This document shows positions 2,446 to 25,556 of a DNA stretch of 64,000 bases, in pieces. A program made the position numbers and the translations under genes. This stretch comes from Candidatus Campbellbacteria bacterium. GTDB taxonomy: Bacteria; Patescibacteriota; Minisyncoccia; Phycocordibacterales; UBA1006. The stretch lies in assembly GCA_002698305.1 (NCBI GenBank), contig NZWR01000005.1, positions 2,047 to 66,046 of the forward strand, read 5' to 3'. Below the pieces are notes generated by a model that worked only from the letters and a program-made list of their open reading frames with translations, ran no database searches and was not told the origin of the DNA. Numbering within the stretch: position 1 is the stretch's first letter; each line of letters opens with the position of its first letter.

Positions 2446-2448
2446 GAT

Positions 2449-3177: not shown

Positions 3178-3183
3178 AGAGCT

Positions 3184-5437: not shown

Positions 5438-5438
5438 T

Positions 5439-6953: not shown

Positions 6954-6970
6954 AAGTTGCCAACATTTTT

Positions 6971-7007
6971 TGCTTAGCAAAAATCTATATTGCGACATAA
7001 TGTATAC
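6971..7007 (+). promoter_or_regulatory. conserved recombinase promoter block with CATAAT -10, leaderless spacing
   Basis: 6971..7013 matches 21959..22001 at 37/43 positions ungapped while flanks are unrelated; CATAAT 6996..7001, 6 nt to ATG 7008. Confidence 0.6.
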
Positions 7008-8327: not shown

Positions 8328-8369
8328 AAAACCACACAAGCGGTTTTTTAACTATGTTTACAATTTCGA

Positions 8370-8558: not shown

Positions 8559-8653
8559 ATAAATACATATTAATTATTTCGAATAATAACCGCTTGCGTA
8601 AGAAACTTGACTCGTGTATAGTTTACCTACCGAACGTTAGTTAATTATTACAT

Positions 8654-9178
8654 ATGTCAAAAGATAACACAACAAAAGAAAGTATTTTATCAAACGCTAA
8701 ACAGTTATTTGGACAGTATGGTTTCGCGAGCACCAGTACTCAAATGATCGCTGAAGCGGTGGGCATTAAAAAACCATCTCTCTACTACTTTTTCAAGAAC
8801 AAGGAAGCTATATATATCCATCTGCTTGAAAAAGCTATTGCAGAAGTACAAGAACTCTTCGAGGGAGAACAATATTCAAAACTCTCATTTGAAGAACGAC
8901 TCGTTATTCTTTTTAAATTCAGTAAAGACAATGGTTCGTTTATCTTTTCAGTACATACTCTGACCCCAAAGAACCTCAAACATGTTATGGAGATATCAGA
9001 GAGCATGGCTTCGGTAATGTTGAAATATCTCAAGACCCAGAAAACAAAATGTTCATCAAAAGATGCACTTACGATTATCTTTGATATTACTCAAAACTAT
9101 GCACGCCGTGCGGCTCAACAAGAAAAAATCATGAGTCCAAAACGATACGCTCAATTACTTATCCAACTACTCAGCTAA
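8654..9178 (+). CDS. TetR family transcriptional regulator
   Basis: N-terminal TetR HTH FASTSTQMIAEAVGIKKPSLYYFFKNKEAIY; precedes efflux genes. Confidence 0.85.
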   Translation: MSKDNTTKESILSNAKQLFGQYGFASTSTQMIAEAVGIKKPSLYYFFKNKEAIYIHLLEKAIAEVQELFEGEQYSKLSFEERLVILFKFSKDNGSFIFSVHTLTPKNLKHVMEISESMASVMLKYLKTQKTKCSSKDALTIIFDITQNYARRAAQQEKIMSPKRYAQLLIQLLS

Positions 9179-9182
9179 CTGT

Positions 9183-10688: not shown

Positions 10689-10690
10689 TT

Positions 10691-13600
10691 ATGTTAGATA
10701 TTTTTATTACAAAAAAGCGATTCACATGGTTTACGCTTATCTTTCTCGTTATTGTCGGACTATTTGTGATGGTAAACATCCCCAAGGAATCAATGCCAGA
10801 AATTCAAATACCTATTATTGGTGTAACCACTGCATACCCAGGTGCGTCGTCGCTAGATGTTGAGGAGCTGGTTACCAATCCTATTGAGAAACAGCTATTA
10901 CGAGGGCTTCAAGATGTAAAGGATATTAGTTCTAATTCAAATGAAGGAATCTCAAGTATTACGATAGAATTTGAAGCGTCAGTTGATATTGACCAAGCTT
11001 TGCGTGAAGTGAATGATGAGGTGGATAAAGTAAAAAATGATCTCCCGAGTGATGCACTTGATCCAACAGCTCAAGAATTTTCATTCGATGATCAGCCTGT
11101 TTTTGTAGTCTCAATCTCATCACAAGAAGCGTTTACTCAATTGAGTGACACTGCTGAATCTGTTGAAGATATTTTTCTTGATATTAATGGAGTCTCTCGC
11201 GTAGAAATTGCAGGTATTCCTGATCGTCAAATGACAATTATCGTTGATAAGAAAAATTTGAGTGCTCATAATTTAAATATCAGTGATCTCGCACGAACGA
11301 TTGGGCAAACCGATGTATCTTTTCCACTTGGCTCTATTGTGCAAGATGGTGTTGAATATAATGTGAGTGTTGATAATACCGTTGGCTCGATTGAGGATCT
11401 TGAAAATATTATTGTAACCTCAAGTTCGTCAGGTTCACCTGTCTATGTACGAGATATTGCTCGTATTGAAGACGGACTTGCTCCCTATACCTCATGGTCA
11501 CGATTGAGCACCAATGGATCACAGCCACAGCAAGCCATTACGTTTTCAATTTTCAAGCAAGTTGGTTTTGATATCACCAAGGTAACTAAAGATGCACGAG
11601 AAGCAGTTGTTGATCTACAATCAGATTTCTCTGAAATGGAATTTATTACACTCATTGATTCGGGGAATGATGTTGCAAGTGATATCACAAGCCTCACCAA
11701 CTCAGCACTTCTCACTATTCTTTTGGTAGTCATTGTGCTTTCGCTTGGTCTTGGGGTTCGAGAGTCAATTATTGCGGGAATCTCTGTGCCATTATCATTC
11801 CTGCTTTCATTTATTGGTCTTTATCTTTCAGGAAATACGATTAATTTCATCAGTCTTTTTGCTTTGATTCTCGCCATAGGATTGTTGGTGGATGCTTCGG
11901 TGGTTATTATCGAAGGGATTACCCTTGCTCGATCAAAAGGTCTTTCGCCCGACGAAGCTATTCGGGCAACACTTAAAGAATTCGCAGCTCCTGTTATTGC
12001 TGGAACCCTCACAACGCTTGTGGTATTCATTCCACTTGCAACTCTTTCAGGAGTGACAGGTCAATTCATTAAATCAATCCCAATGACTATTATTTTTGTT
12101 CTCCTTGGCTCATTGATTGTGGCCTTGATCTTTGTTCCGTTACTGAGCACTATTCGTCTTCCAAAAACAAAAGAAAGTAAATTATCTCAATGGCTTGATA
12201 GGATTGACTCAAAACGAGATGCAACCATTGAAAAGCTCAATATTTGGTATGCGAATAAATTGGAAACGTTATTGAGTACTAAAAAATATGGAAAACGACT
12301 TATTAGTGGTCTCATTGCTCTGTTTGTCATTTCCATCACACTGGTTGGAGCAGGATTAGTAAAGTCTGAATTTTTCCCAGCAGATGAATTTGATCAACTC
12401 ACTATCACAGCCGAACTACCGCAAGGTTCGCAATTGATTGATATGAGCGAAGCTCTTATTCCTGTTGAAGAGTTCTTACAAAAGTATGATTCTGTTAAGT
12501 CTTTTGTTTCTCGTATACGTCCCGCGAGTGCTGACGTGACAGTTATCTTAAAAGATACTAGTGTTGGCGATCAATCGATCGCAGACTTTCGAGCATTTTT
12601 TGCGAGCAATACAAGTCGGGCTGACTTTATCGTGACACCACCTGCAAGTGGGCCATCAGCAGGAGCTCCTTTCAGTCTTGATATCACAGGAGCTGATTAC
12701 GATACAGTAACGACAATCGCTGAAGATATTAAAGATCTTGTTGAAGGTCTTGAAGGAACGACCGATGTACAAAGTAGTTCAGCAAGCACTGCTTTGGGTA
12801 TTATTCTTGATCTTGATGTAAAGAAAGTAAAAGATGTCGGACTTGATGTAGCAACCGTATCAAGCATGGTACGAAGCTCGCTCTATGGATCTGAAGTAGC
12901 AACACTAAGCCGTAATGGTGAAGATGTTGATGTAGTGCTCGTTTCAGCTTTAAATGAAAACTACACTCAATCAGACACAACCAATCATGTATCACTTGAC
13001 GTATTACGTGCCCTACCGCTACAAACACCACAAGGAGAAATTCCACTCGGTGTCTTGATGCAAGAAGAAATCAGAGGAACGAACCCTTCTATTAAACACA
13101 CTGATGGTGATCGAGTAGTAACTATCTCAAGCTATCTTGAAGACGGTGTTATTCTTACTGATGTGATTACAGAGTTTTCATCTCAGGTTGAAACTATTGA
13201 AGGGGTTGATCAAGTGGAATGGAGTTTTGGCGGAGATGCCGAAGCGAGTGCTGAATCTGGGAAAGAGCTCATGATTGCTCTATTAGTTGGAATCTTCTTA
13301 GTCTTCGGGGTTTTGATCTTTCAGTTCAATTCAGTGCGTAATACCTTCTTTATTATCTCAGTAGTACCACTTGGTTTGATTGGTGTGATATTTGGGCTCT
13401 TTGTTTTCGGTCAAACACTTTCGTTTACGGCGATGCTCGGATTTGTTGCCTTGGTGGGAATTGTGGTAAACAACTCGATTATTTTGATTGATGTGATTAC
13501 AGGATTACAAAAAGAAGGAACACGGTCTCATAAAGAAAATGTTATTCAGGGTTCAGCTTCACGATTGCGTCCCATTCTTCTTACCACGCTCACCACAGTG

Positions 13601-13741
13601 ACTGGAATGGTGCCTCTTCTCTTTACCTCGCCCGTATGGCGACCACTGGCTCTTGCCATTATCTCAGGGCTCCTCTTTGCCGTAGTACTCACCTTATTCC
13701 TTATCCCGCTTCTGTTTTACAAGTGGGGTCGGAAAGAATAA
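10691..13741 (+). CDS. RND (AcrB/AcrD/AcrF family) efflux permease
   Basis: 1016 aa, two 6-TM bundles with large loops, typical RND N-terminus FITKKRFTWFTLIFLV and GLLVDASVVIIEG motif. Confidence 0.9.
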   Translation: MLDIFITKKRFTWFTLIFLVIVGLFVMVNIPKESMPEIQIPIIGVTTAYPGASSLDVEELVTNPIEKQLLRGLQDVKDISSNSNEGISSITIEFEASVDIDQALREVNDEVDKVKNDLPSDALDPTAQEFSFDDQPVFVVSISSQEAFTQLSDTAESVEDIFLDINGVSRVEIAGIPDRQMTIIVDKKNLSAHNLNISDLARTIGQTDVSFPLGSIVQDGVEYNVSVDNTVGSIEDLENIIVTSSSSGSPVYVRDIARIEDGLAPYTSWSRLSTNGSQPQQAITFSIFKQVGFDITKVTKDAREAVVDLQSDFSEMEFITLIDSGNDVASDITSLTNSALLTILLVVIVLSLGLGVRESIIAGISVPLSFLLSFIGLYLSGNTINFISLFALILAIGLLVDASVVIIEGITLARSKGLSPDEAIRATLKEFAAPVIAGTLTTLVVFIPLATLSGVTGQFIKSIPMTIIFVLLGSLIVALIFVPLLSTIRLPKTKESKLSQWLDRIDSKRDATIEKLNIWYANKLETLLSTKKYGKRLISGLIALFVISITLVGAGLVKSEFFPADEFDQLTITAELPQGSQLIDMSEALIPVEEFLQKYDSVKSFVSRIRPASADVTVILKDTSVGDQSIADFRAFFASNTSRADFIVTPPASGPSAGAPFSLDITGADYDTVTTIAEDIKDLVEGLEGTTDVQSSSASTALGIILDLDVKKVKDVGLDVATVSSMVRSSLYGSEVATLSRNGEDVDVVLVSALNENYTQSDTTNHVSLDVLRALPLQTPQGEIPLGVLMQEEIRGTNPSIKHTDGDRVVTISSYLEDGVILTDVITEFSSQVETIEGVDQVEWSFGGDAEASAESGKELMIALLVGIFLVFGVLIFQFNSVRNTFFIISVVPLGLIGVIFGLFVFGQTLSFTAMLGFVALVGIVVNNSIILIDVITGLQKEGTRSHKENVIQGSASRLRPILLTTLTTVTGMVPLLFTSPVWRPLALAIISGLLFAVVLTLFLIPLLFYKWGRKE

Positions 13742-13795
13742 TATAATTACTGGTAGTTTTAAAAAGAACATATATTAATTAATCTATACACTATT

Positions 13796-14383
13796 ATGAA
13801 TACATACACGATAAAAGTTATCACAGGCTCAGTGCGAGAAGGTCGTTTTGCTCATAAAGCTGCACAATGGATCACTCATGAATTAAATAAAAATGAATCA
13901 GTAACAGCTGAAGTTATTGATCTTTTGGAATATGAAATGCCATTCTTTAATGCGCCAATAAGCCCTATGATGAAATCAGAACCATATACCAATGAAAATG
14001 TGGAACGATTTACGGAAAAAATAGGTGAAGCTGATGCTTTTGTTATGATTTCTCCTGAATATAATGCTAGTACTTCTGCTGTCTTGAAAAATGCTATCGA
14101 TTGGGTTGGTAAAGAGTGGAATAACAAACCAGTTGCATTTGTAAGTTATGGTGCTGTAGGGGGTGCTCGTGCTATTTCACACTTGCGACATATTACTAAT
14201 AATTTACAAATGACCCCTGTATCAAAAGCAGTAACTATTCCAGGAGCTCAATTTTTCCCGGTACTTTTTGGTCAAGCAGATATCAATGAATTGTTTGTGG
14301 ACATACAAAAACCCGCTGATGAAATGATCCAACAGCTGTTATGGTACACAAAAGTTTTGAAAACTGCGCGCGATACAATATAA
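13796..14383 (+). CDS. NADPH-dependent FMN reductase family protein
   Basis: IKVITGSVREGRF start and SPEYNASTSAVLKNAIDW motif. Confidence 0.75.
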   Translation: MNTYTIKVITGSVREGRFAHKAAQWITHELNKNESVTAEVIDLLEYEMPFFNAPISPMMKSEPYTNENVERFTEKIGEADAFVMISPEYNASTSAVLKNAIDWVGKEWNNKPVAFVSYGAVGGARAISHLRHITNNLQMTPVSKAVTIPGAQFFPVLFGQADINELFVDIQKPADEMIQQLLWYTKVLKTARDTI

Positions 14384-14428
14384 ATAAGATATTTTTTGCT
14401 ATTAAGTAGCTAATGCCAGATTGTTTAT

Positions 14429-14461
14429 TACAACCCTTTTAGTGCTAGCTGTCAATGGTGA
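14429..14461. repeat. copy B of 33-nt att-like direct repeat, overlapping tRNA-Glu 3' end
   Basis: TACAACCCTTTTAGTGCTAGCTGTCAATGGTGA; last 6 nt are the TCACCA end of tRNA-Glu on the minus strand. Confidence 0.85.
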
Positions 14462-15351: not shown

Positions 15352-15427
15352 GTCCCTATAGTTCAATCGGATAGAACGGAAACCTCCTAAGTTTCAAATC
15401 CAGGTTCGATTCCTGGTGGGGACACCA
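15352..15427 (+). tRNA. tRNA-Arg (anticodon CCT), CCA encoded
   Basis: Manual cloverleaf: acceptor GTCCCTA/TGGGGAC, anticodon arm GAAAC-CTCCTAA-GTTTC, T arm CCAGG-TTCGATT-CCTGG, 3' ACCA. Confidence 0.9.
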
Positions 15428-15492
15428 ACTCGTGAGTGCGATTTAGCGCTCGAGAAGCCTTATTTTTCAACAAAAAAATTCTCAGAAATTCA

Positions 15493-15514
15493 CGACCCAC
15501 CGAGGAGTCGAACT
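15493..15514. repeat. inverted fragment resembling the tRNA-Arg 3' end
   Basis: Reverse complement AGTTCGACTCCTCGGTGGGTCG aligns to GGTTCGATTCCT-GGTGGGGAC (15403..15423); 16 matches in the 18-column core. Confidence 0.5.
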
Positions 15515-15544
15515 TTTGTATAAAAGATTGATTGATTTCTATTT

Positions 15545-15567
15545 AAAAAGTGACAAATGTGACACTG
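15545..15567. repeat. element left-end motif AAAAAGTGACAAATGTGACACTG
   Basis: 20/23 identical to 953..975. Confidence 0.6.
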
Positions 15568-15639
15568 GTTAGATTTTAAAATTATTTTCAAAAATTACCT
15601 TAAAATCAAAACTCAATAATATATTATGCATGTCAAGCA

Positions 15640-15672
15640 TTATACTATAAGACAAACTCGCTTATAGTATAA
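15640..15672. promoter_or_regulatory. perfect 12-nt inverted repeat upstream of element 2 ParB-MTase
   Basis: TTATACTATAAG acaaactcg CTTATAGTATAA. Confidence 0.4.
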
Positions 15673-15806
15673 GAGAAACACTGGAAGCCTTTAAAAATCG
15701 GCTTGCAGAGAAATTCTAAAAAGTATATGTTCAGAATATGAAGTCAAAACGTGGCTGCTAGAACGGCTGGATACCTTCGATTTATCCAACTAATCTATAT
15801 ACCACC

Positions 15807-17078
15807 ATGAAAACTATTTTCTGGACTACGGTACAAAAAACAGTTAACGAACTTGTACCACAAACTATCAACCCAAGAACCATCTCTAAATTTCAACTAG
15901 AGAAACTGAAAGCATCACTTGAGAAATTTAATCTCGTAGAGATACCCGCCATAGATTATGACGGAACTATCTTAGCAGGACATCAGCGTATCAAGGCACT
16001 TAAGCTGCTCGGACGAGGAGATGAACTTATTGATGTTCGCATTCCTAACAGAAAACTTACCAAGGAAGAATCAGACGAATATCTTATTGGAAGTAACAAA
16101 CTTGGCGGAGACTGGGATTTCGAGCTACTTAAGGATTTTGATTTCGATATGCTTGTTGATTCGGGCTTTGAGGAGATGAAACTCACAGAGTTTTGGGATA
16201 CAAAAAAAGAAGTCGAAGATGATGACTTTGACGAGCAAAAAGAACTTAAGAAAATTAAAACCCCAACAGCACAGCCTGGAGATATTATTCACCTTGGGAA
16301 ACACAAAGTATTATGCGGAGATTCAACCAATCCAGAGAATTTGAAACGATTACTCGGAGATGAAAAAGCCAGCATGATTTACTCTGATCCTGTCTACAAC
16401 ATTAACGTTGATTACGATGGAGGTATTGGTGGAAAGCAAAACTATGGTGGTGACGTATATGACACAAGAAGTGAACAAGAATACTATGATTTTCTCACTA
16501 AAGCTTTAGAAGCTTCTTTGTCTGTATCTGAAGAGAATACTCACATCTTCTATTGGTGTGATCAAGTCTACATTGGCTATCTGCAAGATATCTACCGAAA
16601 GCATGGAATAGTCAATAAACGAGTGACACTATGGTTGAAGAATAATCAGAATCCTGTTCCTTCTGTGGCTTTTAACAAGGTCTACGAACCATGTGTGTAT
16701 GGGGTCAGAGGTAAACCATATCTCAATTCAGTACTCACCGCGAACAATGAAGTTATGAATCAGGAGCTTGGTACTGGTAACGAACTCTTTGAACAGGTAA
16801 ATGACATTTGGACTGCAAAAAGATTAAGTGGGAAAGACTACGAACATGCAACGAGTAAACCAATTACATTGCATACCAAAGCTATCAAGCGATGTACTAA
16901 ACCAAATGATATTATTATTGATTCATTTCTTGGTTCTGGAAGTACCTTATTGTGTGCTGAGCAACTGGATAGGCGGGTCTATGGTTGTGAACTTGAACCT
17001 ACTTTTTGTGATTTGATTATCAAACGCTATGAGAAGATGACGGGGAAGAAGGCGATAGTGGAACATGAAGAAGTCTAA
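15807..17078 (+). CDS. ParB-like nuclease domain / DNA methyltransferase fusion (paralog)
   Basis: Colinear with 3763..5043 (motif IV at the same codon 194 in both); ParBc EIPAIDYDGTILAGHQRIKALKLLG; motif IV is SDPVYNIN; AdoMet motif IDSFLGSGST. Confidence 0.85.
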   Translation: MKTIFWTTVQKTVNELVPQTINPRTISKFQLEKLKASLEKFNLVEIPAIDYDGTILAGHQRIKALKLLGRGDELIDVRIPNRKLTKEESDEYLIGSNKLGGDWDFELLKDFDFDMLVDSGFEEMKLTEFWDTKKEVEDDDFDEQKELKKIKTPTAQPGDIIHLGKHKVLCGDSTNPENLKRLLGDEKASMIYSDPVYNINVDYDGGIGGKQNYGGDVYDTRSEQEYYDFLTKALEASLSVSEENTHIFYWCDQVYIGYLQDIYRKHGIVNKRVTLWLKNNQNPVPSVAFNKVYEPCVYGVRGKPYLNSVLTANNEVMNQELGTGNELFEQVNDIWTAKRLSGKDYEHATSKPITLHTKAIKRCTKPNDIIIDSFLGSGSTLLCAEQLDRRVYGCELEPTFCDLIIKRYEKMTGKKAIVEHEEV

Positions 17079-17493
17079 GAAATTACTTGAACAAATAGTA
17101 GAAGAACTTAGAAAGACTCCTGTTGTCTCTGTAGTATGTCAAAAATTCGGTATTGCTCGTCATACTTTTTATAGATGGAGACAAATAGACCCCGATTTTG
17201 ATCGAGAGGTTAGTGAAGCTCTTGATATCGGAAGTTTGGTTGTAAACGATATTTGTATGAGTCAGCTTATTGCATCAATTCAAAATGGGAATATGGGCTC
17301 AGTAAAATACTGGATGAGCAATAAGCACTCTGATTTTATTCGTCCGCGTAAAAAGCACCCTGAAGACACAAGCAGCAAGCTCCCGTTTAGTGGTATCAGC
17401 ATCCAAGTCGTGACAGAAAAACAAGTGTCAGATGATCCAGATGAGGTGATGTTTCCAAAAGAAAACACTATCAACGATAGTGACAACACCTAG
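17065..17493 (+). CDS. terminase small subunit-like HTH protein (paralog)
   Basis: HTH VCQKFGIARHTFYRWRQID; same 14-nt overlap with methyltransferase stop as in element 1; no TerL follows. Confidence 0.55.
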   Translation: MKKSKKLLEQIVEELRKTPVVSVVCQKFGIARHTFYRWRQIDPDFDREVSEALDIGSLVVNDICMSQLIASIQNGNMGSVKYWMSNKHSDFIRPRKKHPEDTSSKLPFSGISIQVVTEKQVSDDPDEVMFPKENTINDSDNT

Positions 17494-17735
17494 CTATTAA
17501 ATTCTGCGAGTTTCTTCTTACCCATCGGAGAATCTACAGGAATCATGTTTTTGTTCTTACATACACGGCATGCCTTATGCGTCGTTGTATGCCGCCATAT
17601 AGAATAGATAAGCCCGGGAATGATAAAGAGTAACCAAAGAATGAGTTCGAATCCTATATTTCCTTTAGTAATACTTTTTGGGTACCCAACGTTACCACAT
17701 TGAGTACATACTTGTTTTGTTCGTTTTTTAAACAT
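17490..17735 (-). CDS. split zinc-ribbon membrane protein (LITAF-like layout)
   Basis: Start moved to ATG 17735 (MFKKRTKQV); CTQC ... hydrophobic LILWLLFIIPGLIYSIW ... CRVC. Confidence 0.5.
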   Translation of the reverse strand: MFKKRTKQVCTQCGNVGYPKSITKGNIGFELILWLLFIIPGLIYSIWRHTTTHKACRVCKNKNMIPVDSPMGKKKLAEFNS

Positions 17736-17835
17736 GTTTTTGATCGGTTTTAATTTTATAAAAGTGGCGAGTCTTACAAAAGGCTCCCCACCATCGCGAT
17801 TCTCCAAAGAGAACCCATAAATGTTTCCATTTATG

Positions 17836-17881
17836 ACCGATCAAGATGACTCTGGTGAGGAGTCTTTTATACTTGATCGGT
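17836..17881. other. nested hairpin in divergent intergenic region
   Basis: ACCGATCAAG at GACTC tggtgag GAGTC ttttata CTTGATCGGT. Confidence 0.5.
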
Positions 17882-18036
17882 ATTTGGTAACCATACCTTA
17901 AATTAAGGGTTAGGTTTATTTTTTAATAGTACCGAATCGTACTGATTCAGTCTAGATAGTATATCGCTAATCATTATGTTTGCTAAGTTTAAAATTATAA
18001 ATTTATCAGATTCATTTATCTTGTTACAATCTAGTT

Positions 18037-18513
18037 ATGAAAAAAGCTAAAAGAGTAATTCTAATCATCATAATCCCACTAGTTTCAGTTATATTGATTG
18101 AATACTTATATTCTCAAAGATGGAGGCTACAAGGGTCTGAAGAAATAGATAATTATGGAGAAATAATAATTGGTAAATGGGGTACAGAATTACTCAGCAA
18201 TTCAAATAATATCTACTTATACAAATTTCAAATTGAAGAGGATGGGTCATATCGCGATATTTCCAAGCAATTTCCCACTCTTAGTTTAAGAAATGGTGGT
18301 AAAATATCAGGATATAAATCATGGTCATTAGATAACTCAAATCTTACGATAACCACTGACTTTTCTGCCGTAGGTCTTACGTCAAAAGAAACTATTTCAG
18401 TGCAAAAAGAGATTGTTTTTGCTAATAATAATTTTCTTGTTTTTAAAGAAAAAAGTAATTCTATTTTTTCTAGAATAATTCCTAGAAAACAAATATATAT
18501 TAGAGTTAATTAA
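18037..18513 (+). CDS. hypothetical N-terminally anchored protein
   Basis: 158 aa, N-terminal TM/signal helix; tandem with similar 141-aa ORF; very AT-rich. Confidence 0.5.
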   Translation: MKKAKRVILIIIIPLVSVILIEYLYSQRWRLQGSEEIDNYGEIIIGKWGTELLSNSNNIYLYKFQIEEDGSYRDISKQFPTLSLRNGGKISGYKSWSLDNSNLTITTDFSAVGLTSKETISVQKEIVFANNNFLVFKEKSNSIFSRIIPRKQIYIRVN

Positions 18514-18544
18514 GATAAAATTAGTATATGTTATACTTTCAATT

Positions 18545-18970
18545 ATGAAAATCATCAAAAAAATCATAATTTTTACTGTTTTATTGTTTTTGATAGTAAG
18601 CATCTATTCATTTAGATGGATGTTCGAACCTTCTTCTAAAGTAGAAAATTATGATGAAATATTAGTTTCTCAAAAAGGTTGGAAAAAAATTCATCCGATT
18701 TTAGGAAAAAGAAGAATTAATTGTGAGAATTTTTCTTTTGATGAAAAAAATAACCTTGAATTGTCAACTTGTTTTCCTTTACGTGGGGAGGCCAAAGGAG
18801 ATGGTATTTCTTGGTCTATTCAAGAAGATATTATCTCATTAAGTTATAAAAAACAAAATTTATTTAAAGAACCTATTTATTTCAATAGAAGTGAAAAAGT
18901 AGAAAAAATTAATTCAAACACTTTAGTATTACGAGATGGAATTCGTTTTTCTGTTTACAAAAGTTATTAA
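18545..18970 (+). CDS. hypothetical N-terminally anchored protein (tandem paralog-like)
   Basis: 141 aa, same layout as 18037..18513 (TM helix; SWS.. and L.IT / L.LS strands); terminator follows. Confidence 0.5.
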   Translation: MKIIKKIIIFTVLLFLIVSIYSFRWMFEPSSKVENYDEILVSQKGWKKIHPILGKRRINCENFSFDEKNNLELSTCFPLRGEAKGDGISWSIQEDIISLSYKKQNLFKEPIYFNRSEKVEKINSNTLVLRDGIRFSVYKSY

Positions 18971-18991
18971 AACAAGCAAAACTTGTTTTTT
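18971..18991 (+). terminator. rho-independent terminator
   Basis: AACAAG caaaa CTTGTT plus T-run. Confidence 0.6.
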
Positions 18992-19133
18992 ATTTTTGAT
19001 TTAGTAGGGTACGAAGAAATAACTTTCAAAATCAAATATATGAAATAGTAAAATATGACAAAAGTTTCAAATGGTACAAGGTACTTGGAAACGCAGAACC
19101 TTAAATTAAATTTCAAAAACTAAATACTTTAAA

Positions 19134-21911
19134 ATGAGAAAATTATTTCTTTTTATTGGGCTTTGCCTAATTTCAAATTTACTTTTTGCACAGACAGTGC
19201 ATCAAAATGACAACAATCAGATTTTAAGAATCCCTCTGGTTTTCCACATATATCACGATGGAAGTGAAGGTAATTTTACTGAATCGGAAATCAGAGGAAA
19301 TATCCCACATTTAAATGAAAATTTTAATAATGTTGACCTTTCTGAAATTGAATTACCGTATAGAAATGATGTAGCTAGTAATAATATAGAATTTTATATT
19401 CCAAATGGGATGATTTATTGGTATAACTCATCAGCTCAATATGCTCCAGGTTCAAATCAACCTTTTGATGATGCTGCTAATTATGCAGATTCGAACAACT
19501 ACTTGAATGTAGTTGTCGCAAATATTAGTGGATCTAATTGGTATGATTTTTTTACCGGTGTTAATGGTGCTGAAGGCTATTCAACAAGTATGGGAGTAGT
19601 TGTAGGCTACCAACATTTTTATTACAACGGTGATCACCCTTGGGCGGTTAATAGTAGCAATCCTACAGTACCAAGTTTTAGCACTGCACCCTTTTTATTA
19701 GCTCACGAAATAGGGCATCATTTAAGCCTCGAACATTTATGGGGTGATTTGATTGGTTGCAGTGGAGACGATGGGGTCTCTGATACGCCAAAACAAGCTG
19801 AGCCTAATGATCTAGATGATTATAATCAAACTAGTCAAAGCTGGAATAACATCGTAGATATATGTGGTCAATCTGGAGTAGATGGAAACTATGAAAATTT
19901 TATGGATTATAGCTATGCTCTTCCTTCTGGAAAAGGAATGTTTACAAATGGGCAGAAGACCAAAATGAGACATTACCTATTAGATAATGAAACTGACTTA
20001 ATTGAACAGATACAGGAAAATGATAACTGTTCTGATGCAATTAATTTAAATACAAGCTCATCAATCAATTCACCTTATTTAAAAGGTAGCGTTTATAATG
20101 CAACCTCTGAAAATTTCCCAGGAGATCCAATTTCTTGTGATAATGGTCAAGGAAGCAGTTTTTCTGGAAAAGGGGTTTGGTACAGTTTTGTAGCAGATGA
20201 AAATGTTAACTTGGTGACAGTAAAACGTGATCCAGCAAGTCAAATATTGCCAGTAATGGCTATTTATTCGGGATCAAATTGTAATAATCTTACAACTTTA
20301 ATTGATTGCGATGTAATGAATACTGGGGCTACTTTTGTAGATGCTGGTGCTAATAATTTTTTAATTGGTGAACGCTATTACGTTAGGGTTTATCATAATG
20401 ATGGATCTCCATTATCAGTAACAGATTCTCAATTTGAAATCAGAGTTATTTCTGGTGGTAACACGACTGCCAATATTATTTTTAATGATTCTGTTATTAA
20501 AGACGGCACAGGTGGTGGAGATGGCGACAGTGACGGAATAGCAGAAAATGGAGAAGAAATTGATCTTGATATTGAGTTAAAAAATACTGGACAACAAACA
20601 CTAACCAATATTTCTGCTGTACTAACTACCACAACATCTGGAATAGTTATTGATGACGATAGTGAGAGTTTTGCAAGTATATCTCCTAATCAGGAGGTGT
20701 GGAGCAATGGTGATTATGACTTTGATATTCCTTCTAGTTTTTCTGGAAGTGATATAGATTTTGAACTCGACGTTGCAACTGACCAAGGAAATTTTACGGT
20801 TACGTTTTCTTTACCAGTTCAAACAACATTTGAACCTAATCTCATTATTGATGAGGTCATCGTACATGATGGAAGATTTGAAGAAGATGGGCGAGGTGAT
20901 GGAGATAATATCCCAGAATCAGGAGAAGAGATTGATTTAAATATCAATATTAAGAACGTGGGAAACATAACTGCAGATAATGTAGAAGCATACCTTTCAA
21001 CAAATGATTCTGATATTACTATCACTGCCAATAATGTTGGCTATGCTGATATTGATGCCAATGAAATTAAAATTAGATCATCTGATTTTGATTTCGATAT
21101 TGATAACAATATGAGTAGTCATACAGTTACCTTTACGTTAAGCATGGTCGCAGATAACGGCTCTTGGTCTGAAGACTTTGATTTGTATATAGAGCGATCT
21201 AGTACCTTGGATGGTGGCGTTGATTTAAAAGTCGAAGACTACCGTGTTAAAGATGGTACTGGCGGAGGTTCTGGAAATGATGATGAACAAATAAATCCAG
21301 GAGAGTCTATTGATTTAGACGTAAAGTTGAGAAATTTTGGTTATAACGACGCAAGATATGTTAAAGGATATCTTTCTACCATTGTTTCTCCGGGTATAAG
21401 TATCACTGATGATTATGAATATTTTAGTCATATTGATTCAGGGGATGCAGAATGGGAAGACGACTTTGACTTTGATGTTCCTTCTAATTATTCAGAAAAT
21501 TTTGTAATTTTCCAACTCGATATTGAATCAGACGAAGGAGACTGGATAGATTATTTTGCAATTCCAGTTGTGTATGGATCTAACAGATCTTCTACTCAAT
21601 CAGAAGCGAAGATTAATCAAGAGGAAATAGTGAGTATCGGGAGTACAGAACTAGGTAGTAAACCTATAGTCTACCCAAACCCTTTACTTGATCGTTCTAA
21701 CCTACATCTTTTAATTAACTCAACATCTATGATTGAGATCAATCTTGTTGATATACAAGGAAGAGTGGTAAGAAAAGTTTTTTCTGGAACAAAAGAATCT
21801 GGGAAATATACCTTTCCAATTCTTGATGGTCAGACTCTTGCCGCTGGAACATATCTTTTACAAATTTCACAAAACGGAAATACGAGTACCATTAAATTGG
21901 TAAAAAATTAA
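19134..21911 (+). CDS. secreted M43/pappalysin-like zinc metalloprotease with three CARDB-like repeats and T9SS C-terminal sorting domain
   Basis: Signal peptide MRKLFLFIGLCLISNLLFAQ; HEIGHHLSLEH (19704..19736) and NFMDYS...FTNGQKTKMRHYL; three repeats around DG.GGGDGD.DGI.E.GEEIDL.I..KN.G; last 81 aa (21666..21908) IVYPNP...GTYLLQISQNGNTSTIKLVKN match the Por/T9SS CTD pattern. Confidence 0.85.
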   Translation: MRKLFLFIGLCLISNLLFAQTVHQNDNNQILRIPLVFHIYHDGSEGNFTESEIRGNIPHLNENFNNVDLSEIELPYRNDVASNNIEFYIPNGMIYWYNSSAQYAPGSNQPFDDAANYADSNNYLNVVVANISGSNWYDFFTGVNGAEGYSTSMGVVVGYQHFYYNGDHPWAVNSSNPTVPSFSTAPFLLAHEIGHHLSLEHLWGDLIGCSGDDGVSDTPKQAEPNDLDDYNQTSQSWNNIVDICGQSGVDGNYENFMDYSYALPSGKGMFTNGQKTKMRHYLLDNETDLIEQIQENDNCSDAINLNTSSSINSPYLKGSVYNATSENFPGDPISCDNGQGSSFSGKGVWYSFVADENVNLVTVKRDPASQILPVMAIYSGSNCNNLTTLIDCDVMNTGATFVDAGANNFLIGERYYVRVYHNDGSPLSVTDSQFEIRVISGGNTTANIIFNDSVIKDGTGGGDGDSDGIAENGEEIDLDIELKNTGQQTLTNISAVLTTTTSGIVIDDDSESFASISPNQEVWSNGDYDFDIPSSFSGSDIDFELDVATDQGNFTVTFSLPVQTTFEPNLIIDEVIVHDGRFEEDGRGDGDNIPESGEEIDLNINIKNVGNITADNVEAYLSTNDSDITITANNVGYADIDANEIKIRSSDFDFDIDNNMSSHTVTFTLSMVADNGSWSEDFDLYIERSSTLDGGVDLKVEDYRVKDGTGGGSGNDDEQINPGESIDLDVKLRNFGYNDARYVKGYLSTIVSPGISITDDYEYFSHIDSGDAEWEDDFDFDVPSNYSENFVIFQLDIESDEGDWIDYFAIPVVYGSNRSSTQSEAKINQEEIVSIGSTELGSKPIVYPNPLLDRSNLHLLINSTSMIEINLVDIQGRVVRKVFSGTKESGKYTFPILDGQTLAAGTYLLQISQNGNTSTIKLVKN

Positions 21912-21934
21912 ATATTAACTTAATACATAAACAT

Positions 21935-21959
21935 AACCACCTCAAATGAGGTGGTTTTT
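21935..21959 (+). terminator. rho-independent terminator after protease gene
   Basis: AACCACCTC aaat GAGGTGGTT plus T-run. Confidence 0.8.
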
Positions 21960-21995
21960 ACTTAGCAATAAATCATATTGCGACATAATATATAC
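21959..21995 (+). promoter_or_regulatory. conserved recombinase promoter block with CATAAT -10, leaderless spacing
   Basis: 37/43 match to 6971..7013; CATAAT 21984..21989, 6 nt to ATG 21996. Confidence 0.6.
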
Positions 21996-23267
21996 ATGGA
22001 AGAAATACCATTAAAATATTGTCTATACGCCAGAAAATCAACCGAAGGAGATGAAAAGCAAGCACTCTCGATTGATTCACAAATCAAAGAAATGCTCCAA
22101 ATAGCAGAGCGAGAACATTTGAACATCACAGAAATAAGAAAGGAGTCTCATTCAGCCAAAGCATCTGGAACTCGTCCTGTATTTAATGAGATATTGGAAG
22201 ATATAGATAAGGGACTTTTCAATGCTATTATCACTTGGGCACCCGATAGACTCTCTCGTAACGCAGGAGACCTTGGTCAGTTGGTAGACCGAATAGATCA
22301 AAAGAAGCTTTTAGGAATTAAAACTTTCGGACAAACCTTTACGGATTCACCAAGTGATAAATTCCTTCTGATGATTCTCTGTTCTCAGGCAAAGCTCGAA
22401 AATGATAACAAGAGCATTAATGTTAAAAGAGGGTTACGAACACGATGTGAAATGGGATTACGGCCAGCGGTACCGCCAACAGGATACATCAGTAAGGATA
22501 GTAAGACGGCTAAATGTGAAGTAGAACCAGATCCAAAGCGAGCACCTGTCATCAAACAAATATTTGAGAACATAGCGTATAAAGGATGGTCAGTAAGAAA
22601 AACTCACTCATGGCTCAAATACAGTATTGATTTTAAGACCAAGAACGATAAACACTTAAGCATAGGTAACATGTTCACTCTCGTAAGAAATACCTTCTAT
22701 TATGGACGTTTTGAGTATCCAAGAGGCTCTGGGAACTGGTATGACGGTATACATACACCAATTATCACTAAAGAACTCTTTGACCTAGTAAGTGACTCAA
22801 TTAAGAAGCACACCATGAAGACGTATGGAAAAGAATTTGCTTTTACCAAATTTATTAAATGTGCATATTGTGACTCTGGAGTTGTTGCAGATGAGAAGTT
22901 CAAAAAATTAAAATCAGGGGGCGTAAACCGACATGTATACTATCGATGCTGTAGATCTAAGGATACCAAATGTATGAATAAGGCGATTAATGAAAAAGAT
23001 CTTATTCATGAATTTTGTATGCTTGCTGATACTCTCGATATTACCAAGTTAAACTTAAATGAGAGGGTAACTAATGAGATTAAAAAATTCAAACAATTAC
23101 AGAGTATGTTTCTTGGAATTAAAAAGACATCAAACATAGATGATATTGATATCCGTAACTATATTAAATTTATACTAGAGCAGGGGAGTATGAGTGATAA
23201 AAGGTCTTTACTAAATTGTTTTACCAATGAAATTTTTTTAAGAAATAAAAAAATAATTATATTTTAA
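21996..23267 (+). CDS. large serine recombinase (paralog)
   Basis: YCLYARKSTEGDEKQALSIDSQ catalytic region, zinc ribbon CAYCDSG...YYRCC; colinear with 7008..8327. Confidence 0.9.
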   Translation: MEEIPLKYCLYARKSTEGDEKQALSIDSQIKEMLQIAEREHLNITEIRKESHSAKASGTRPVFNEILEDIDKGLFNAIITWAPDRLSRNAGDLGQLVDRIDQKKLLGIKTFGQTFTDSPSDKFLLMILCSQAKLENDNKSINVKRGLRTRCEMGLRPAVPPTGYISKDSKTAKCEVEPDPKRAPVIKQIFENIAYKGWSVRKTHSWLKYSIDFKTKNDKHLSIGNMFTLVRNTFYYGRFEYPRGSGNWYDGIHTPIITKELFDLVSDSIKKHTMKTYGKEFAFTKFIKCAYCDSGVVADEKFKKLKSGGVNRHVYYRCCRSKDTKCMNKAINEKDLIHEFCMLADTLDITKLNLNERVTNEIKKFKQLQSMFLGIKKTSNIDDIDIRNYIKFILEQGSMSDKRSLLNCFTNEIFLRNKKIIIF

Positions 23268-23343
23268 ATACAAACAATTTTTTACTTATTATTATTATTT
23301 CTATAATTCGTAAGCCTTCCATAGGAATTTATTAAAAGTTTTT

Positions 23344-23602: not shown

Positions 23603-23992
23603 ATGAAAAAAGAAAACAACATTTTAGAACAACTACTAACTGACGATAACGATATTAATGAAAAGGAATTGCTAGACATTCTTTCTCCTTTTATAAAGAT
23701 CAACAACAGTAATCAAGATATAATTTTCTTAGATTCAACATTAGACTTTAATTTGAAAAGCAAATTACTTCTTTTTCTACTTGGGAAAAAGGTAAGTTTT
23801 CTACTTGGAAAGGCTGAGACTGATCATATAAAAGCAAAAGATATCATTGAAGAAACAGGTATACCTAAGGGAAGTGTACTTCCAAACCTGAAACTATTAA
23901 AAGATGAAAAATTAGTTACTTCAGATTCACAGGGTTACTTTATTACTAGTTATCAAATTTCTAAAATAAAAAATAGAAATATTTTAAATTAA
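23603..23992 (+). CDS. small wHTH-like protein (cassette gene 1)
   Basis: 129 aa; C-terminal IKAKDIIEETGIPKGSVLPNLKLLKDEKLVTSDSQGYFIT has the helix-turn-helix-wing pattern. Confidence 0.5.
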   Translation: MKKENNILEQLLTDDNDINEKELLDILSPFIKINNSNQDIIFLDSTLDFNLKSKLLLFLLGKKVSFLLGKAETDHIKAKDIIEETGIPKGSVLPNLKLLKDEKLVTSDSQGYFITSYQISKIKNRNILN

Positions 23993-23994
23993 TT

Positions 23995-24321
23995 ATGGAT
24001 AAAAAAGAAATTATTAATAAGATAAGAGATTTACTTAATGAACTCGAAGGTTTAGGCTTAGATACTAAAAAATCAAAAAAGCAGAAAATAGAAGATAAAA
24101 CCCCTACCGGATGTATCGGATCAATTGAGGTGTTAATAAATGAAGGTTTTTTTGAAAAGTTAAGAACTGTTTCTGAGGTGGTAGATAAACTAAAAGAAGA
24201 AGGTCAGCCTTACAGTAGATCTTTGGTTTCAATGAACCTCTTAAATCTAGTTAAACCACCCAAAAGAACACTTCGTAGAATTAAAGAGGAGAAACAATGG
24301 AATTATATAGTAAGATCCTAA
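23995..24321 (+). CDS. small wHTH-like protein (cassette gene 2)
   Basis: 108 aa; N-terminal helix EIINKIRDLLNELEGL; RTVSEVVDKLKEEGQPYSRSLVSMNLLNLVK...WNYI; 2-nt gap to gene 1. Confidence 0.45.
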   Translation: MDKKEIINKIRDLLNELEGLGLDTKKSKKQKIEDKTPTGCIGSIEVLINEGFFEKLRTVSEVVDKLKEEGQPYSRSLVSMNLLNLVKPPKRTLRRIKEEKQWNYIVRS

Positions 24322-24328
24322 TAAATAT

Positions 24329-24730
24329 ATGATTAATGAAATTAGCAAGATAAAAGAAAGATTAGATAAACTTGAAAGTGTAGTTTTTTCTAAAAAAGAA
24401 AATAGCCTACATTCTTTTTCTCAATCAACAAATATAGATTTTTCATTAAATGAAAGAGCTTTTATTAAAAGGTACTCAAGTAATTTAGGTAACGGTCAGG
24501 AATTTACTACATTAATAGTAGCGTATTTATCTGAAGGGAAAGAAGCTACTCAGATCTCGTCGCAAGAAATAAAAAAGGTATGGGAAAGGTGTTCTGGACT
24601 GATCGGCATTCCTTTTCAATCAATTTTCACGACTAGGGCAAAAGGTAATGGATGGATTAATCCATTAGAAAAAAGAGGTTTTTATGAGTTAGGTAACTCT
24701 TGGTTACAGATTTTAGATTCCAATGAGTAG
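24329..24730 (+). CDS. small wHTH-like protein (cassette gene 3)
   Basis: 133 aa; N-terminal helix EISKIKERLDKLESV similar to gene 2; ISSQEIKKVWERC...GNGWINPLEKRGFYEL. Confidence 0.4.
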   Translation: MINEISKIKERLDKLESVVFSKKENSLHSFSQSTNIDFSLNERAFIKRYSSNLGNGQEFTTLIVAYLSEGKEATQISSQEIKKVWERCSGLIGIPFQSIFTTRAKGNGWINPLEKRGFYELGNSWLQILDSNE

Positions 24731-25460
24731 GATACTGGGTACAATTCCAGAATTTCTTGAAAATAAACTAACTGACGAATTCCTTGAAATTAAAAGACTC
24801 TTTCAAATGAATGAATTTCAACCATCTCAACTTAATGCTGGGAGATTAGCAGAGGTGGTATTGCGTATTTTTCAAGATTTACTGTCTGAAACTATTACCC
24901 CCTTAGGGAATCAAATTAGTGCAAGAGATAAAACACGTATACTAAATAGTGTTGAAAATCATCCAACGCTTGACCCCCATATTCGCCAAAAATCTACTTC
25001 TATAGTAAGACTACTCTTAGACTTCAGAAATAATAGGGACATAGCACATCTAGGAGGGTTAAATGCAAATAAGATTGATGCTTATTTTATAATGATTTCA
25101 TCTAATTGGATCTACGCAGAATTCATTCGTGTGTATGGTAATTATCCAATTGAAGATGCACAAATAATGATTGATAAATTAGGGGTGCCTAATTACCCAG
25201 TCATTTTTGATATCGACGGTGATGAATTTATAGCAAGAGATAATCTTAAATCCTGGGAAGAAGTTCTTGTTTTTTGTTCTGTTCGTGAGAGAGGTTTTGA
25301 TTTTCTGTATTCGAAAACTAAAGATAGTAATAAAAAACGTTTTTCTGATACTATAAGTCGTATGATCAAAGATAGGTTGATCCTTATTAAAGACGGTAAA
25401 TACTATATAATGCCCAAAGGAATAGAAAAAGTTAAAGAGAGAAAACTTTTAGAATATTAA
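24723..25460 (+). CDS. HEPN-like (Rx6H) protein with C-terminal wHTH (cassette gene 4)
   Basis: 245 aa; overlaps gene 3 by 8 nt; helical N-domain with LLLDFRNNRDIAHLGG (R102..H109, 25026..25049); C-terminal FSDTISRMIKDRLILIKDGKYYIMPKG. Confidence 0.45.
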   Translation: MSRILGTIPEFLENKLTDEFLEIKRLFQMNEFQPSQLNAGRLAEVVLRIFQDLLSETITPLGNQISARDKTRILNSVENHPTLDPHIRQKSTSIVRLLLDFRNNRDIAHLGGLNANKIDAYFIMISSNWIYAEFIRVYGNYPIEDAQIMIDKLGVPNYPVIFDIDGDEFIARDNLKSWEEVLVFCSVRERGFDFLYSKTKDSNKKRFSDTISRMIKDRLILIKDGKYYIMPKGIEKVKERKLLEY

Positions 25461-25556
25461 TTCAAAACAGAATGTTGCTTGCAATATTTTTTTGTTCCAG
25501 CACGAGGTCGCACACCAATAAACATATTTAATTTCCGAGAATTATAGCACTTCACG

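Follow-up and report, generated by a model that had tools for sequence, protein, structure and literature searches.

A TerL-less element beside a tRNA-Arg gene, and the apparently undescribed family of integrative islands in Patescibacteria to which it very probably belongs

Genes and features of the second element

The contig NZWR01000005.1, of which a stretch of 64,000 nt (the window) was analysed here, carries two related gene clusters that we refer to as element 1 and element 2. Element 2, the subject of this work, lies next to a tRNA-Arg gene and encodes a fusion of a ParB-type domain with a DNA methyltransferase (MTase), a helix-turn-helix (HTH) protein resembling small terminases (TerS-like) and a large serine recombinase, with an RNA motif and several further genes in between. 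Both elements are members of a family of integrative islands, 6-15 kb in length, that is large and apparently undescribed and is found in the Patescibacteria, ultra-small bacteria also known as the candidate phyla radiation (CPR); for element 2 taken singly, we regard membership of this family as very likely. Features were assigned using open reading frame (ORF) calls, Pfam, PHROG, Rfam, ARAGORN and PADLOC. Those of element 2 and its borders are given below, where handles of the type L010 denote related loci in other genomes, TM a transmembrane segment, T9SS the type IX secretion system, and dN/dS the ratio of nonsynonymous to synonymous substitution rates.

15352..15427, plus strand: tRNA-Arg(CCT), found by ARAGORN and, with 66 bits, by the tRNA model of Rfam; element 2 begins directly at its 3' end
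15428..15463, minus strand: putative right-end-type box, GGCTTCTCGAGCGCTAAATCGCACTCACGAGTT followed by the tRNA end, resembling by eye the boxes of L010, L011 and L030
15491..15513, plus strand: box A' (CACGACCCACC..), unique in the window, matching box A' of L057 and L170
15547..15565, plus strand: terminal motif AAAGTGACAAATGTGACAC (2x AAAGTGACA), the left-end marker of the family
15640-15651 / 15661-15672, no strand assigned: 12-nt perfect inverted repeat TTATACTATAAG-N9-CTTATAGTATAA, a candidate operator seen in the sequence
15807..17078, plus strand: ParB-N-domain / N6-N4 DNA MTase fusion (PF01555 1e-29, phrog_498 2e-84, phrog_620)
17065..17493, plus strand: TerS-like HTH protein of the TerL-less type, with weak small-terminase matches and its N-terminal 95 aa as in copy 1
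17490..17735, minus strand: 81-aa zinc-ribbon protein, CxxC...TM...CxxC, from the translation (dN/dS 0.19 against L170)
17798..17916, minus strand: LOOT RNA (RF03000), 75.8 bits in Rfam against a gathering score of 46.4, model positions 1-121
18037-18513 and 18545-18970, plus strand: two small N-terminally anchored proteins, from their translations; absent from L170
19134..21911, plus strand: zinc metallopeptidase of the M43 family, 925 aa, with a C-terminal sorting domain of the T9SS type (PF05572 4.5e-9, PF18962 3e-8)
21955..22001, plus strand: recombinase promoter, TTAGCA-N17-ATAATA and then ATG, 87% identical to 6967-7013 and present in the family consensus
21996..23267, plus strand: large serine recombinase (PF00239, PF07508, PF13408); its paralog is an integrase of phrog_95
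23603..25460, plus strand: four genes of 129, 108, 133 and 245 aa, from ORF calls; probable right-slot cargo
25473..25523, minus strand: putative pseudo-tRNA, box A and hairpin of the left-end type (TGGTGTGCGACCTCGTGCTGGAAC...TTGCAAGCAA), by pattern match and by eye

The MTase assignment is well founded, with PF01555 scoring 104 bits against a cut-off of 26.7, a DPVY motif at residue 194 and DSFLGSGST near the C-terminus; the N-terminus is ParB-like (phrog_620, 4e-20, residues 8-148) and contains an ILAGHQR motif. The matches of the TerS-like protein are all sub-threshold (Sf6_terminase at 7e-4, phrog_4102 and phrog_4044 at 7e-5 to 9e-4), and its counterpart in element 1 has a somewhat better one, to phrog_4044 at 6e-10. 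In the recombinase the catalytic domain (PF00239, 2.6e-20, residues 16-160) shows the YARKST motif in the alignment, and is followed by PF07508, 2e-11, and PF13408, 8e-5, below the curated cut-off in copy 2 and above it in copy 1. No gene for a large terminase (TerL) was found in element 2 by ORF calls or Pfam, where element 1 has one right after the TerS-like gene. Pfam likewise gave no repressor gene for element 2, and the statement in the initial annotation that it has no LexA-like gene is correct: there is no S24/LexA-like ORF in 15428-23300.

The two elements are paralogous, as had been proposed from the sequence, and their genes are colinear. The MTases (3763-5043 and 15807-17078) are 54% identical over 418 aa without a gap (E 5e-179), the HTH/TerS-like proteins (5030-5437 and 17065-17493) are 38% identical over the first 91 aa (E 2e-24), and the recombinases (6990/7008-8327 and 21978/21996-23267) are 58% identical (E 0). 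In both copies the MTase and TerS-like genes overlap by 14 nt, as their coordinates show, and in both the alignment places methyltransferase motif IV at residue 194, where it reads D194-P-P-F in the first copy and D194-P-V-Y in the second; both details had been noticed earlier. The profile comparison of the TerS-like pair by hhalign (99.9% probability) covers residues 1-95 only, and the C-terminal tails are unrelated. The divergence previously noted at the DNA level is equally clear, since an alignment of copy 1 with copy 2 recovers only short recombinase stretches and the recombinase promoter, at 74-87%. The synonymous sites between the copies are saturated. Such divergence is therefore not that of a recent duplication; judging from the alignments, the duplication is old or the two copies arrived separately.

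The island family

Homologues of the MTase number more than 3,800 at E<1e-10. The best 120 of them are 68-88% identical to it, and the named hosts among these are Parcubacteria, Paceibacteria or similar. A scan of one genome per GTDB species gave 311 loci, 80 of which were inspected in detail, their ORFs being called and compared with the proteins of the window to establish gene order; all counts of loci given below refer to these 80 unless stated otherwise. Nearly all of the 80 kept loci are labelled Patescibacteria. The inspected loci have a fixed order, namely the LexA-like repressor on the minus strand, a small gene (orf132), the MTase, the TerS-like protein, TerL and the recombinase. With all its parts, the layout of the family begins with the 19-nt terminal motif (2x AAAGTGACA) and a stretch of cargo, continues through the repressor with orf132 and the MTase/TerS-like/TerL genes to the LOOT RNA with a small membrane protein, and, after more cargo, the large serine recombinase and a last stretch of cargo, ends at a palindromic box that abuts the 3' end of a tRNA gene. 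The cargo thus has three places: a left slot between motif and repressor or MTase (0.14-8.2 kb), a middle slot between TerS/TerL and recombinase, and a right slot between recombinase and tRNA (0.66-6.1 kb). A catalogue of what lies between the TerS-like gene and the recombinase in related genomes, as proposed in the initial annotation, shows the middle slot to be variable, at about 80 nt, about 1 kb, or 5-7.6 kb. The earlier view of the backbone as a family with a swappable cargo slot therefore stands as far as the family is concerned, with 311 loci and the same order in the 80, but has to be amended from one slot to three.

TerL is present in 54 of the 80 loci, and when truncated contigs are set aside, about 22 of some 77 informative loci are truly TerL-less. 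By MTase similarity, the nearest neighbours of most TerL-less loci are other TerL-less loci, and their TerS-like proteins have only the N-terminal 95 residues in common with the TerL-linked type (hhalign 99.9%). Element 2, with its distinct TerS-like tail, is therefore a representative of an established TerL-less type and not the result of a one-off deletion. The repressor was detected in element 1 and in 38 loci, and several assemblies contain two copies of the island (L011 with L039, for instance, or L021 with L027). The TerL of element 1 is a large terminase by its match to phrog_38 (4e-79). The protein is 75-80% identical across CPR classes; its best 120 homologues are 75-98% identical, the named ones come from CPR, and they appear to belong to the island family. 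The TerL ORF as listed (5289-6953) overlaps the TerS-like gene by ~150 nt; the homologues, at 498-504 aa, cover 90% of it, which places the true start probably near 5440, after the TerS stop codon. No capsid, portal, tail or replication family was found among the 25 most frequent families of each set of cargo proteins (275 proteins altogether), and Pfam scans of the backbone gave no recognisable replication gene.

The closest relative of element 2 is L170, with 88% MTase identity and an unchanged order of the MTase, TerS-like, zinc-ribbon, LOOT and recombinase genes. The left slot of L170 measures 8.4 kb, its right slot holds a type I restriction system, and the protease cassette is absent. 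DNA homology between L170 and the window covers 15806-17987 and 22024-22904, and because of the gap between these two stretches the anchored proteins and the M43 protease can be read as a middle-slot insertion at ~17988-22023. All genes of element 2 are intact; there is almost no left slot, and the middle slot is occupied by the 4-kb protease cassette. For the MTase, the TerS-like protein, the zinc-ribbon protein and the recombinase, dN/dS against L170 is 0.05, 0.34, 0.19 and 0.10, respectively. These values indicate that purifying selection acts, or acted until recently, on the genes of element 2.

Ends, tRNA sites and the choice of site

The terminal motif is a good marker for the left end of the islands. 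The window has two matches to it, at 955-973 and 15547-15565, where ~0.01 would be expected, and 67 of the 80 loci have a single plus-strand copy of it 0.2-8.8 kb upstream of the MTase. Most loci have, to the left of the motif, a conserved architecture of ~100 nt made up of box A, a small hairpin and a half-site, box A'. Box A is a pseudo-tRNA-like stretch containing TCTCGnGCTAGAACC, the first 6-9 bases of which copy the 3' end of the tRNA at the opposite end of the island; box A' is a second half-site that immediately precedes the terminal motif. A GTTACA...TGTAAC palindrome follows on the right of the motif. At the right end of ~20 loci, a box reading ...TCTCGTGCTAGCACGAyT abuts the 3' side of the first minus-strand tRNA downstream of the recombinase. 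These tRNAs are of the Glu, Gln, Ser, Trp, Leu and Lys types, and other tRNAs in the same loci lack the box. Flanking direct repeats of 11-42 nt were found in seven loci. Repeats of 11-17 nt join box A' with the right-end box in five loci, while L068 (29 nt) and element 1 have longer repeats further out.

The recombinases follow the type of tRNA. Pairs of recombinases at the same tRNA type are 76% identical, against 59% for pairs at different types, and for 17 of 21 the nearest recombinase neighbour sits at the same type. The MTase has no such link (70% for same-type pairs and 68.5% for different-type pairs). Since the recombinase tracks the tRNA type and the MTase does not, the recombinase would be the component that chooses the site, and the recombinase and packaging modules would reassort. 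This match of recombinase and tRNA is the strongest evidence for site choice by the recombinase and for the reassortment of the two modules. We consider it probable that site-specific recombination next to tRNA genes makes, or once made, the family mobile.

Almost no variation is seen in the motif AAAGTGACAAAAGTGACAC from one CPR class to another, while the recombinases diverge. For this reason it is probably bound by the ParB-MTase or the TerS-like protein and not by the recombinase. GTGACA iteron-like arrays are also seen in unrelated viral contigs (L183, L186, L190, L194 and L196). Five loci (L015, L018, L023, L037 and L045) lack the pseudo-tRNA architecture to the left of the motif; the same five have a conserved gene of ~57 aa (MNTEDKKNPKNWTTEETDRVV...), 2 nt from the motif and reading away from it, the product of which might be a directionality factor or part of a neighbouring element. 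Elsewhere the terminal motif has a further recombinase gene immediately to its left (L025, at 2618-5506, and also L022, L024 and L051). A LOOT RNA and the gene of a membrane protein come after this second recombinase in L025, so that islands appear to stand in tandem at one site; tandem islands could explain the box-plus-pseudo-tRNA structure of the left ends.

The recombinase gene has a promoter-like element upstream throughout the family, TTAGCA-N17-ATAAT(G/A), within a conserved stretch of 47 nt. This stretch was considered as an attachment (att) site, but it is better explained as a promoter. The start codon of the recombinase lies only ~8 nt past the -10 box, a spacing that points to a transcript with no leader or hardly any.

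With these landmarks the borders of element 2 can be drawn, probably and with moderate confidence, at 15428 and ~25523. On the tRNA-Arg side, the box at 15428-15463 looks by eye like the type that in ~20 related loci abuts the tRNA downstream of the recombinase. At the other side, the structure at 25473-25523 is of the left-end type, and the six bases with which it begins are those of the tRNA-Arg 3' end, in the way that pseudo-tRNA and partner tRNA agree elsewhere. The right boundary at 23300 given in the initial annotation is unsupported. The simplest reading of the mirrored arrangement is that the four genes at 23603-25460 are right-slot cargo and that the interior of element 2 is inverted relative to the family norm, through inversion in place or backwards integration. 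The four genes lie in a very AT-rich stretch (22-32% GC) and have no Pfam match, no convincing PADLOC match and no homologue in the 80 related loci. As they are co-directional, they could be an unrecognised defence or accessory operon. The tRNA-Arg was also considered as a classical attachment site and rejected, there being no other copy of its 3' end in the window.

The LOOT RNA and its membrane protein

The LOOT RNA, which had been missed in the initial annotation, sits directly upstream of the zinc-ribbon gene at 17490-17735, in the manner of a 5' leader. The match to RF03000 is full-length and well above the gathering score; Rfam lists the family as a small RNA, whereas in the islands it is consistently the leader of a membrane-protein gene. 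Of seven TerL-less loci tested with Rfam, six gave a match. A covariance model made from seven of the RNAs retrieved 49 LOOT copies in 47 of the 80 loci, apart from the copy in the window, and the same model finds one in L170. The related loci concerned are among L007-L086, L094 and L170. The RNA lies on the minus strand between TerS/TerL and the recombinase, or on the plus strand right after the recombinase, and in 48 of the 49 cases an ORF on the same strand starts ~50-80 nt downstream of it. The proteins so encoded have a membrane-type segment in 41 cases, a double CxxC zinc ribbon in 16, and in some a nuclease ectodomain; homologues of the zinc-ribbon protein of element 2 stand at the same position in L030, L049, L065, L070 and L170. 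A unit of LOOT RNA and membrane protein that recurs in 47 of 80 loci makes the zinc-ribbon protein an accessory gene of the family with an RNA leader, and not cargo. The earlier account of the TerL slot as filled by a zinc-ribbon membrane protein, two small anchored proteins and a 925-aa protease is thus right about what is there, and needs correction in counting the first of these as cargo. No genomic context for the LOOT RNA motif was found in a literature search.

Cargo of the three slots

The three slots are filled mostly with anti-phage defence systems. Among 148 left-slot proteins there are cyclases of cyclic-oligonucleotide-based anti-phage signalling systems (CBASS), SAVED and Cap15 effectors, Thoeris ThsB/ThsA and Lamassu LmuA, as well as defence reverse transcriptases (DRT), caspase-like peptidases, Shedu and Pycsar-type membrane effectors. 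The 127 proteins of the middle and right slots include type I, II, IIG and III restriction-modification systems, staphylococcal-nuclease-like proteins, T5orf172 and ABC ATPases.

Element 1 is an example in which the slots can be followed from end to end:

813..14455, plus strand: element 1 in full, from the direct repeat 817-850 / 14428-14461 (94%), Pfam, PADLOC and the right-box consensus
813-1013 and 14424-14455: ends of element 1, the left structures and the right box, the latter abutting tRNA-Glu 14456-14530
1024-2445, 2449-3132 and onwards to 8327: genes of element 1, CBASS (1024-2445), repressor (2449-3132), orf132, MTase, TerS, TerL and recombinase (to 8327)
8654-14383: right-slot cargo of element 1, TetR/HlyD/RND/flavin mononucleotide (FMN) reductase, placed by the end analysis

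Its left slot holds a type I CBASS with a cyclase and a 2TM effector (Pfam, PADLOC). The 34-42-nt direct repeat, together with the family right-end box, puts the right end at the tRNA-Glu, and element 1 accordingly appears to be ~13.6 kb long, extending past the recombinase to the tRNA-Glu at 14456. A decayed copy of tRNA-Glu is seen at ~846-900, and the C-terminal fragment of a multicopper oxidase lies just left of the element (window 5-751). DUF305 and DUF411 proteins recur as cargo in related islands (L049 at 16265-16738, and other loci); these families may be copper-related, a weak hint of copper-related cargo.

PADLOC finds no known defence system in element 2 itself, the main cargo of which is the secreted-type protease. 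The Por_Secre_tail domain of this protein scores 34.2 bits with PF18962, against a cut-off of 27, over residues 846-922. Apart from three nearer relatives, its homologues are M43 proteins with the same T9SS-type sorting domain, and the named ones are all from Bacteroidota. T9SS is regarded as a system of the Bacteroidota group, and none is known from CPR. The presence of an M43/T9SS protease in a CPR-like genome is either a horizontal acquisition or a different use of the domain. The two small anchored proteins have no family match in Pfam, PHROG or PADLOC.

The cassette has also been found in different surroundings. A stretch of L174 (1145-3146) is 94% identical to window 18340-20338, which covers the end of the first anchored gene, the second anchored gene and the first 400 codons of the protease, and its flanks are only ~68% identical. 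Further along in L174 (4722-5077), a palindromic box of att-like appearance (TTTAGTGCTAGCACGAGAAGG) comes after the protease gene and precedes a TetR-HlyD-RND operon like that in the right slot of element 1. This pattern suggests recent recombination and a box-mediated joining of cargo blocks, and by the alignments such blocks have evidently been exchanged between these genomes.

Regulation and the relation of element 2 to element 1

The initial annotation had raised the possibility that copy 2 might depend on copy 1, or on a helper, for TerL and regulation, the element 1 repressor being a candidate to bind the inverted repeat at 15640..15672. The repeat itself is exactly as described. Both catalytic motifs of the S24 type, GESM and ATIK, are intact in the element 1 repressor. 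Family repressors fall into two subgroups, which are >50% and <45% identical to it, and AGTATA(A/C) repeats on the flanks of the repressor gene start are a property of the second subgroup only: at least two copies are present in 9 of its 20 loci and in 0 of the 17 of the other subgroup. Each arm of the inverted repeat in element 2 contains an AGTATAA motif. If this repeat is an operator, its partner is more likely to be a repressor of the second subgroup than that of element 1, which we offer as a lead. As to TerL, the tail of a small terminase is the part that contacts TerL in the known cases, and the tails of the two TerS-like proteins are unrelated. The motif of the second subgroup and the unrelated tails argue against a direct dependence of copy 2 on copy 1. 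A TerL-bearing partner in the same assembly was found for 1 of 13 TerL-less loci (among the 80 of 311). Dependence of element 2 on element 1 is thus not supported by these sequence comparisons.

How the islands may move, and alternative explanations

On balance we lean towards reading element 2 as a TerL-less and repressor-less, satellite-like island that would be packaged by a helper phage. The large serine recombinase would integrate and excise the island at the palindromic box beside the tRNA, and in islands with a LexA-like, self-cleaving repressor this protein would keep the island silent until DNA damage, in an SOS-type induction. The TerS-like protein, with the island's own TerL where there is one, would then package the excised DNA, in the manner of a phage satellite, into capsids that a helper phage provides. 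The TerS-like protein or the ParB-MTase is likely to recognise the doubled AAAGTGACA motif. In the TerL-less type, the TerS-like protein alone would redirect a foreign TerL, in the way of SaPI-type islands (islands of the Staphylococcus aureus pathogenicity island, SaPI, kind). Element 2, the interior of which is backwards relative to the landmarks on the tRNA side, may be trapped in place. Packaging by a helper is invoked because a large terminase is not known for any role besides packaging through a portal, and the islands have no virion genes or recognisable replication genes. We hold the use of helper-phage capsids for transfer more tentatively, at somewhat less than even chances. A wider picture, in which the islands are CPR-wide phage satellites and the main vehicle of anti-phage defence (CBASS, Thoeris, Lamassu, restriction-modification) in bacteria largely without CRISPR, the LOOT RNA is their own regulatory RNA for a surface or membrane effector, and TerL-less members parasitise the terminase of a helper phage or of a sibling island with TerL, is more speculative and, taken as a whole, less likely than not.

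Several observations weigh against a mobile, helper-packaged island. No helper phage was found. The close relatives of the MTase in IMG/VR are five to about six contigs; four of those examined are islands or fragments of islands, and none is a phage with structural genes. The other IMG/VR matches of the MTase (at most 40% identity) are phage-sized contigs, mostly not examined, in which a ParB-MTase lies near a terminase. On the side of TerL, all of the best 120 homologues are apparently island-family TerL, with no distant phage relatives among them. The terminal motif was not found beside any phage terminase genes: of the 19 viral contigs that contain it, 17 have unrelated GTGACA repeats or iterons and two are islands. 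No excised circle or empty site was seen, and all contigs with the exact flanking glutaredoxin gene carry element 2 where they are long enough. The left ends have two to three copies of the box, a misfit with a simple serine-integrase attL. The TerS-like assignment is based on weak profile matches, and profile searches against the PDB returned only noise. As for element 2, its orientation is unique among the 67 loci with the motif, so that it may no longer be mobile, and no canonical right-end box follows its recombinase, the one match being at chance level inside the protease gene.

The failure to find a helper phage or a shared pac-like site would be readily understood if the islands were mobile without phage particles, spreading by transformation, vesicles or cell contact, with the MTase, TerS-like protein and TerL engaged in other DNA handling such as the processing of concatemers, self-protection or competition with the packaging of incoming phages. 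In addition, the 75-80% identity of TerL between classes is high for a gene of phage type, unusually so, and about a quarter of the elements do without it. It is nevertheless a standard large terminase with ATPase and nuclease regions, the known biochemical role of which is packaging into a procapsid through the portal, and the order MTase-TerS-TerL is that of a phage packaging module, the phage-sized contigs of IMG/VR pairing ParB-MTase with TerL in the same way. We consider particle-free spread rather unlikely on these grounds, and give a slightly smaller chance to a domesticated, immobile scaffold of a defence island, in which the recombinase would act only locally, by inversion or cassette exchange, and element 2 would be a second fixed copy. 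The identical context of element 2 on 13 contigs with no empty site, its inverted interior, and the L174 box that joins the protease cassette to a TetR-HlyD-RND operon without backbone genes, as cassette shuffling would, can all be quoted for such a scaffold. It is hard to reconcile with islands at six or more tRNA types with matching recombinase lineages, with flanking direct repeats and tandem copies (L025), and with the fact that the paralogs within the window are 54% alike where element 2 is ~70% alike to islands of freshwater CPR.

A terminase, an MTase, an integrase and a CI/LexA-like repressor are also what one could expect of ordinary prophages that have decayed and kept the same few genes. 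But random decay would not converge on one architecture, and what we see in the 80 loci is the same gene set, order and ends, with intact ORFs under strong purifying selection and no remnants of structural genes among the frequent cargo families; the islands are most improbable as prophage remnants. Least probable of all, by a wide measure, is that element 2 is an artefact of assembly or binning such as a chimeric contig. The source record is a metagenome-assembled genome and the protease resembles Bacteroidota proteins, which could raise such a suspicion, but the arrangement of element 2 was found on 13 contigs from independent marine metagenome assemblies, and contigs of ENA, JGI, Logan and NCBI, each assembled separately and from different samples, have the same junctions on both sides. 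The worry, already voiced when the elements were first described, that the copies might be assembly artefacts can be set aside with these 13 contigs. The copies are also too diverged for a collapse, and the neighbouring housekeeping genes have the shortened forms typical of CPR: valyl-tRNA synthetase (ValRS) has 732 aa, PheT 636 aa and release factor 1 (RF1) 328 aa, lengths which fit a CPR organism. In NCBI, the identical MTase is listed for a "Candidatus Campbellbacteria" genome of marine metagenomic origin. An origin of the whole contig in Bacteroidota, brought to mind by the T9SS domain and the RND pump, was ruled out by these shortened proteins and the CPR-wide backbone.

Significance and comparison with known systems

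The CPR make up a large share of bacterial diversity. Few of them have been cultured, their genomes are tiny, and mobile elements and CRISPR are considered scarce in them. A tRNA-linked family of islands with three defence slots in hundreds of CPR species would show how these bacteria acquire and exchange immunity. The 19-nt motif, the tRNA box and the LOOT RNA are sequence markers by which further islands can be found in metagenomes, and serine recombinases with an apparent, lineage-specific target tRNA are of interest for genome engineering. The LOOT RNA motif, so far an orphan RNA, gains a genomic context and a testable role. If packaging by a helper phage is confirmed, this would be, to our knowledge, the first satellite system described in CPR.

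No description of the island family was found in a full-text literature search, the coverage of which did not extend to most subscription journals. Of the features by which a phage satellite is recognised, the family has an integrase at one end, a specific site with flanking repeats, and packaging genes without virion genes, though the ends of element 2 are atypical. No replication module was found in the backbone or among the frequent cargo families, and element 2 has no repressor; for this reason we do not file the island as a phage-inducible chromosomal island (PICI). In function, phage satellites of the SaPI/PICI, PICMI, cf-PICI and P4-like kinds nevertheless come nearest to it, and tycheposons are close as well. 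The PICIs, SaPIs among them, and the phage-inducible chromosomal minimalist islands (PICMI) share with our islands the small size, an integrase, a repressor, a small-terminase-like protein of their own and the absence of virion genes; the SaPIs also redirect a foreign TerL, as the TerL-less type would. They differ in using a tyrosine integrase where the islands have a large serine recombinase. Most of the islands, in contrast, carry TerL and a ParB-MTase; no primase, replicase or AlpA-type activator was found in them, and the LOOT unit and the CPR host set them further apart.

The P4-like satellites and PICIs that serve as defence hotspots resemble the islands in having variable slots in a conserved backbone, filled with CBASS, Thoeris, Lamassu and restriction-modification systems. 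The islands have three slots instead of one, another backbone and a host from another phylum, and element 2 carries a protease. The capsid-forming PICIs (cf-PICIs) likewise bring their own TerS and TerL, but they encode capsid, portal and head-completion proteins, none of which was found in the islands. The tycheposons of Prochlorococcus are also small, tRNA-integrated cargo elements of streamlined marine genomes that sometimes stand in tandem; they use other recombinases and replication modules, and are not known to have an MTase-TerS-TerL module or a LOOT RNA. Temperate phages of the phiC31, Bxb1 and SPbeta type have the same three-domain serine integrase, the gene of which directly follows its promoter, and an att-like box that is palindromic. 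These are complete phages, however, whereas the islands have longer end repeats (11-42 nt) and several copies of the box at the left end. Taken together, the islands are distinct from SaPI/PICI, PICMI, cf-PICI, P4-like satellites and tycheposons in their serine recombinase, their MTase/TerS/TerL module without a capsid, their lack of a replication module, and their LOOT RNA.

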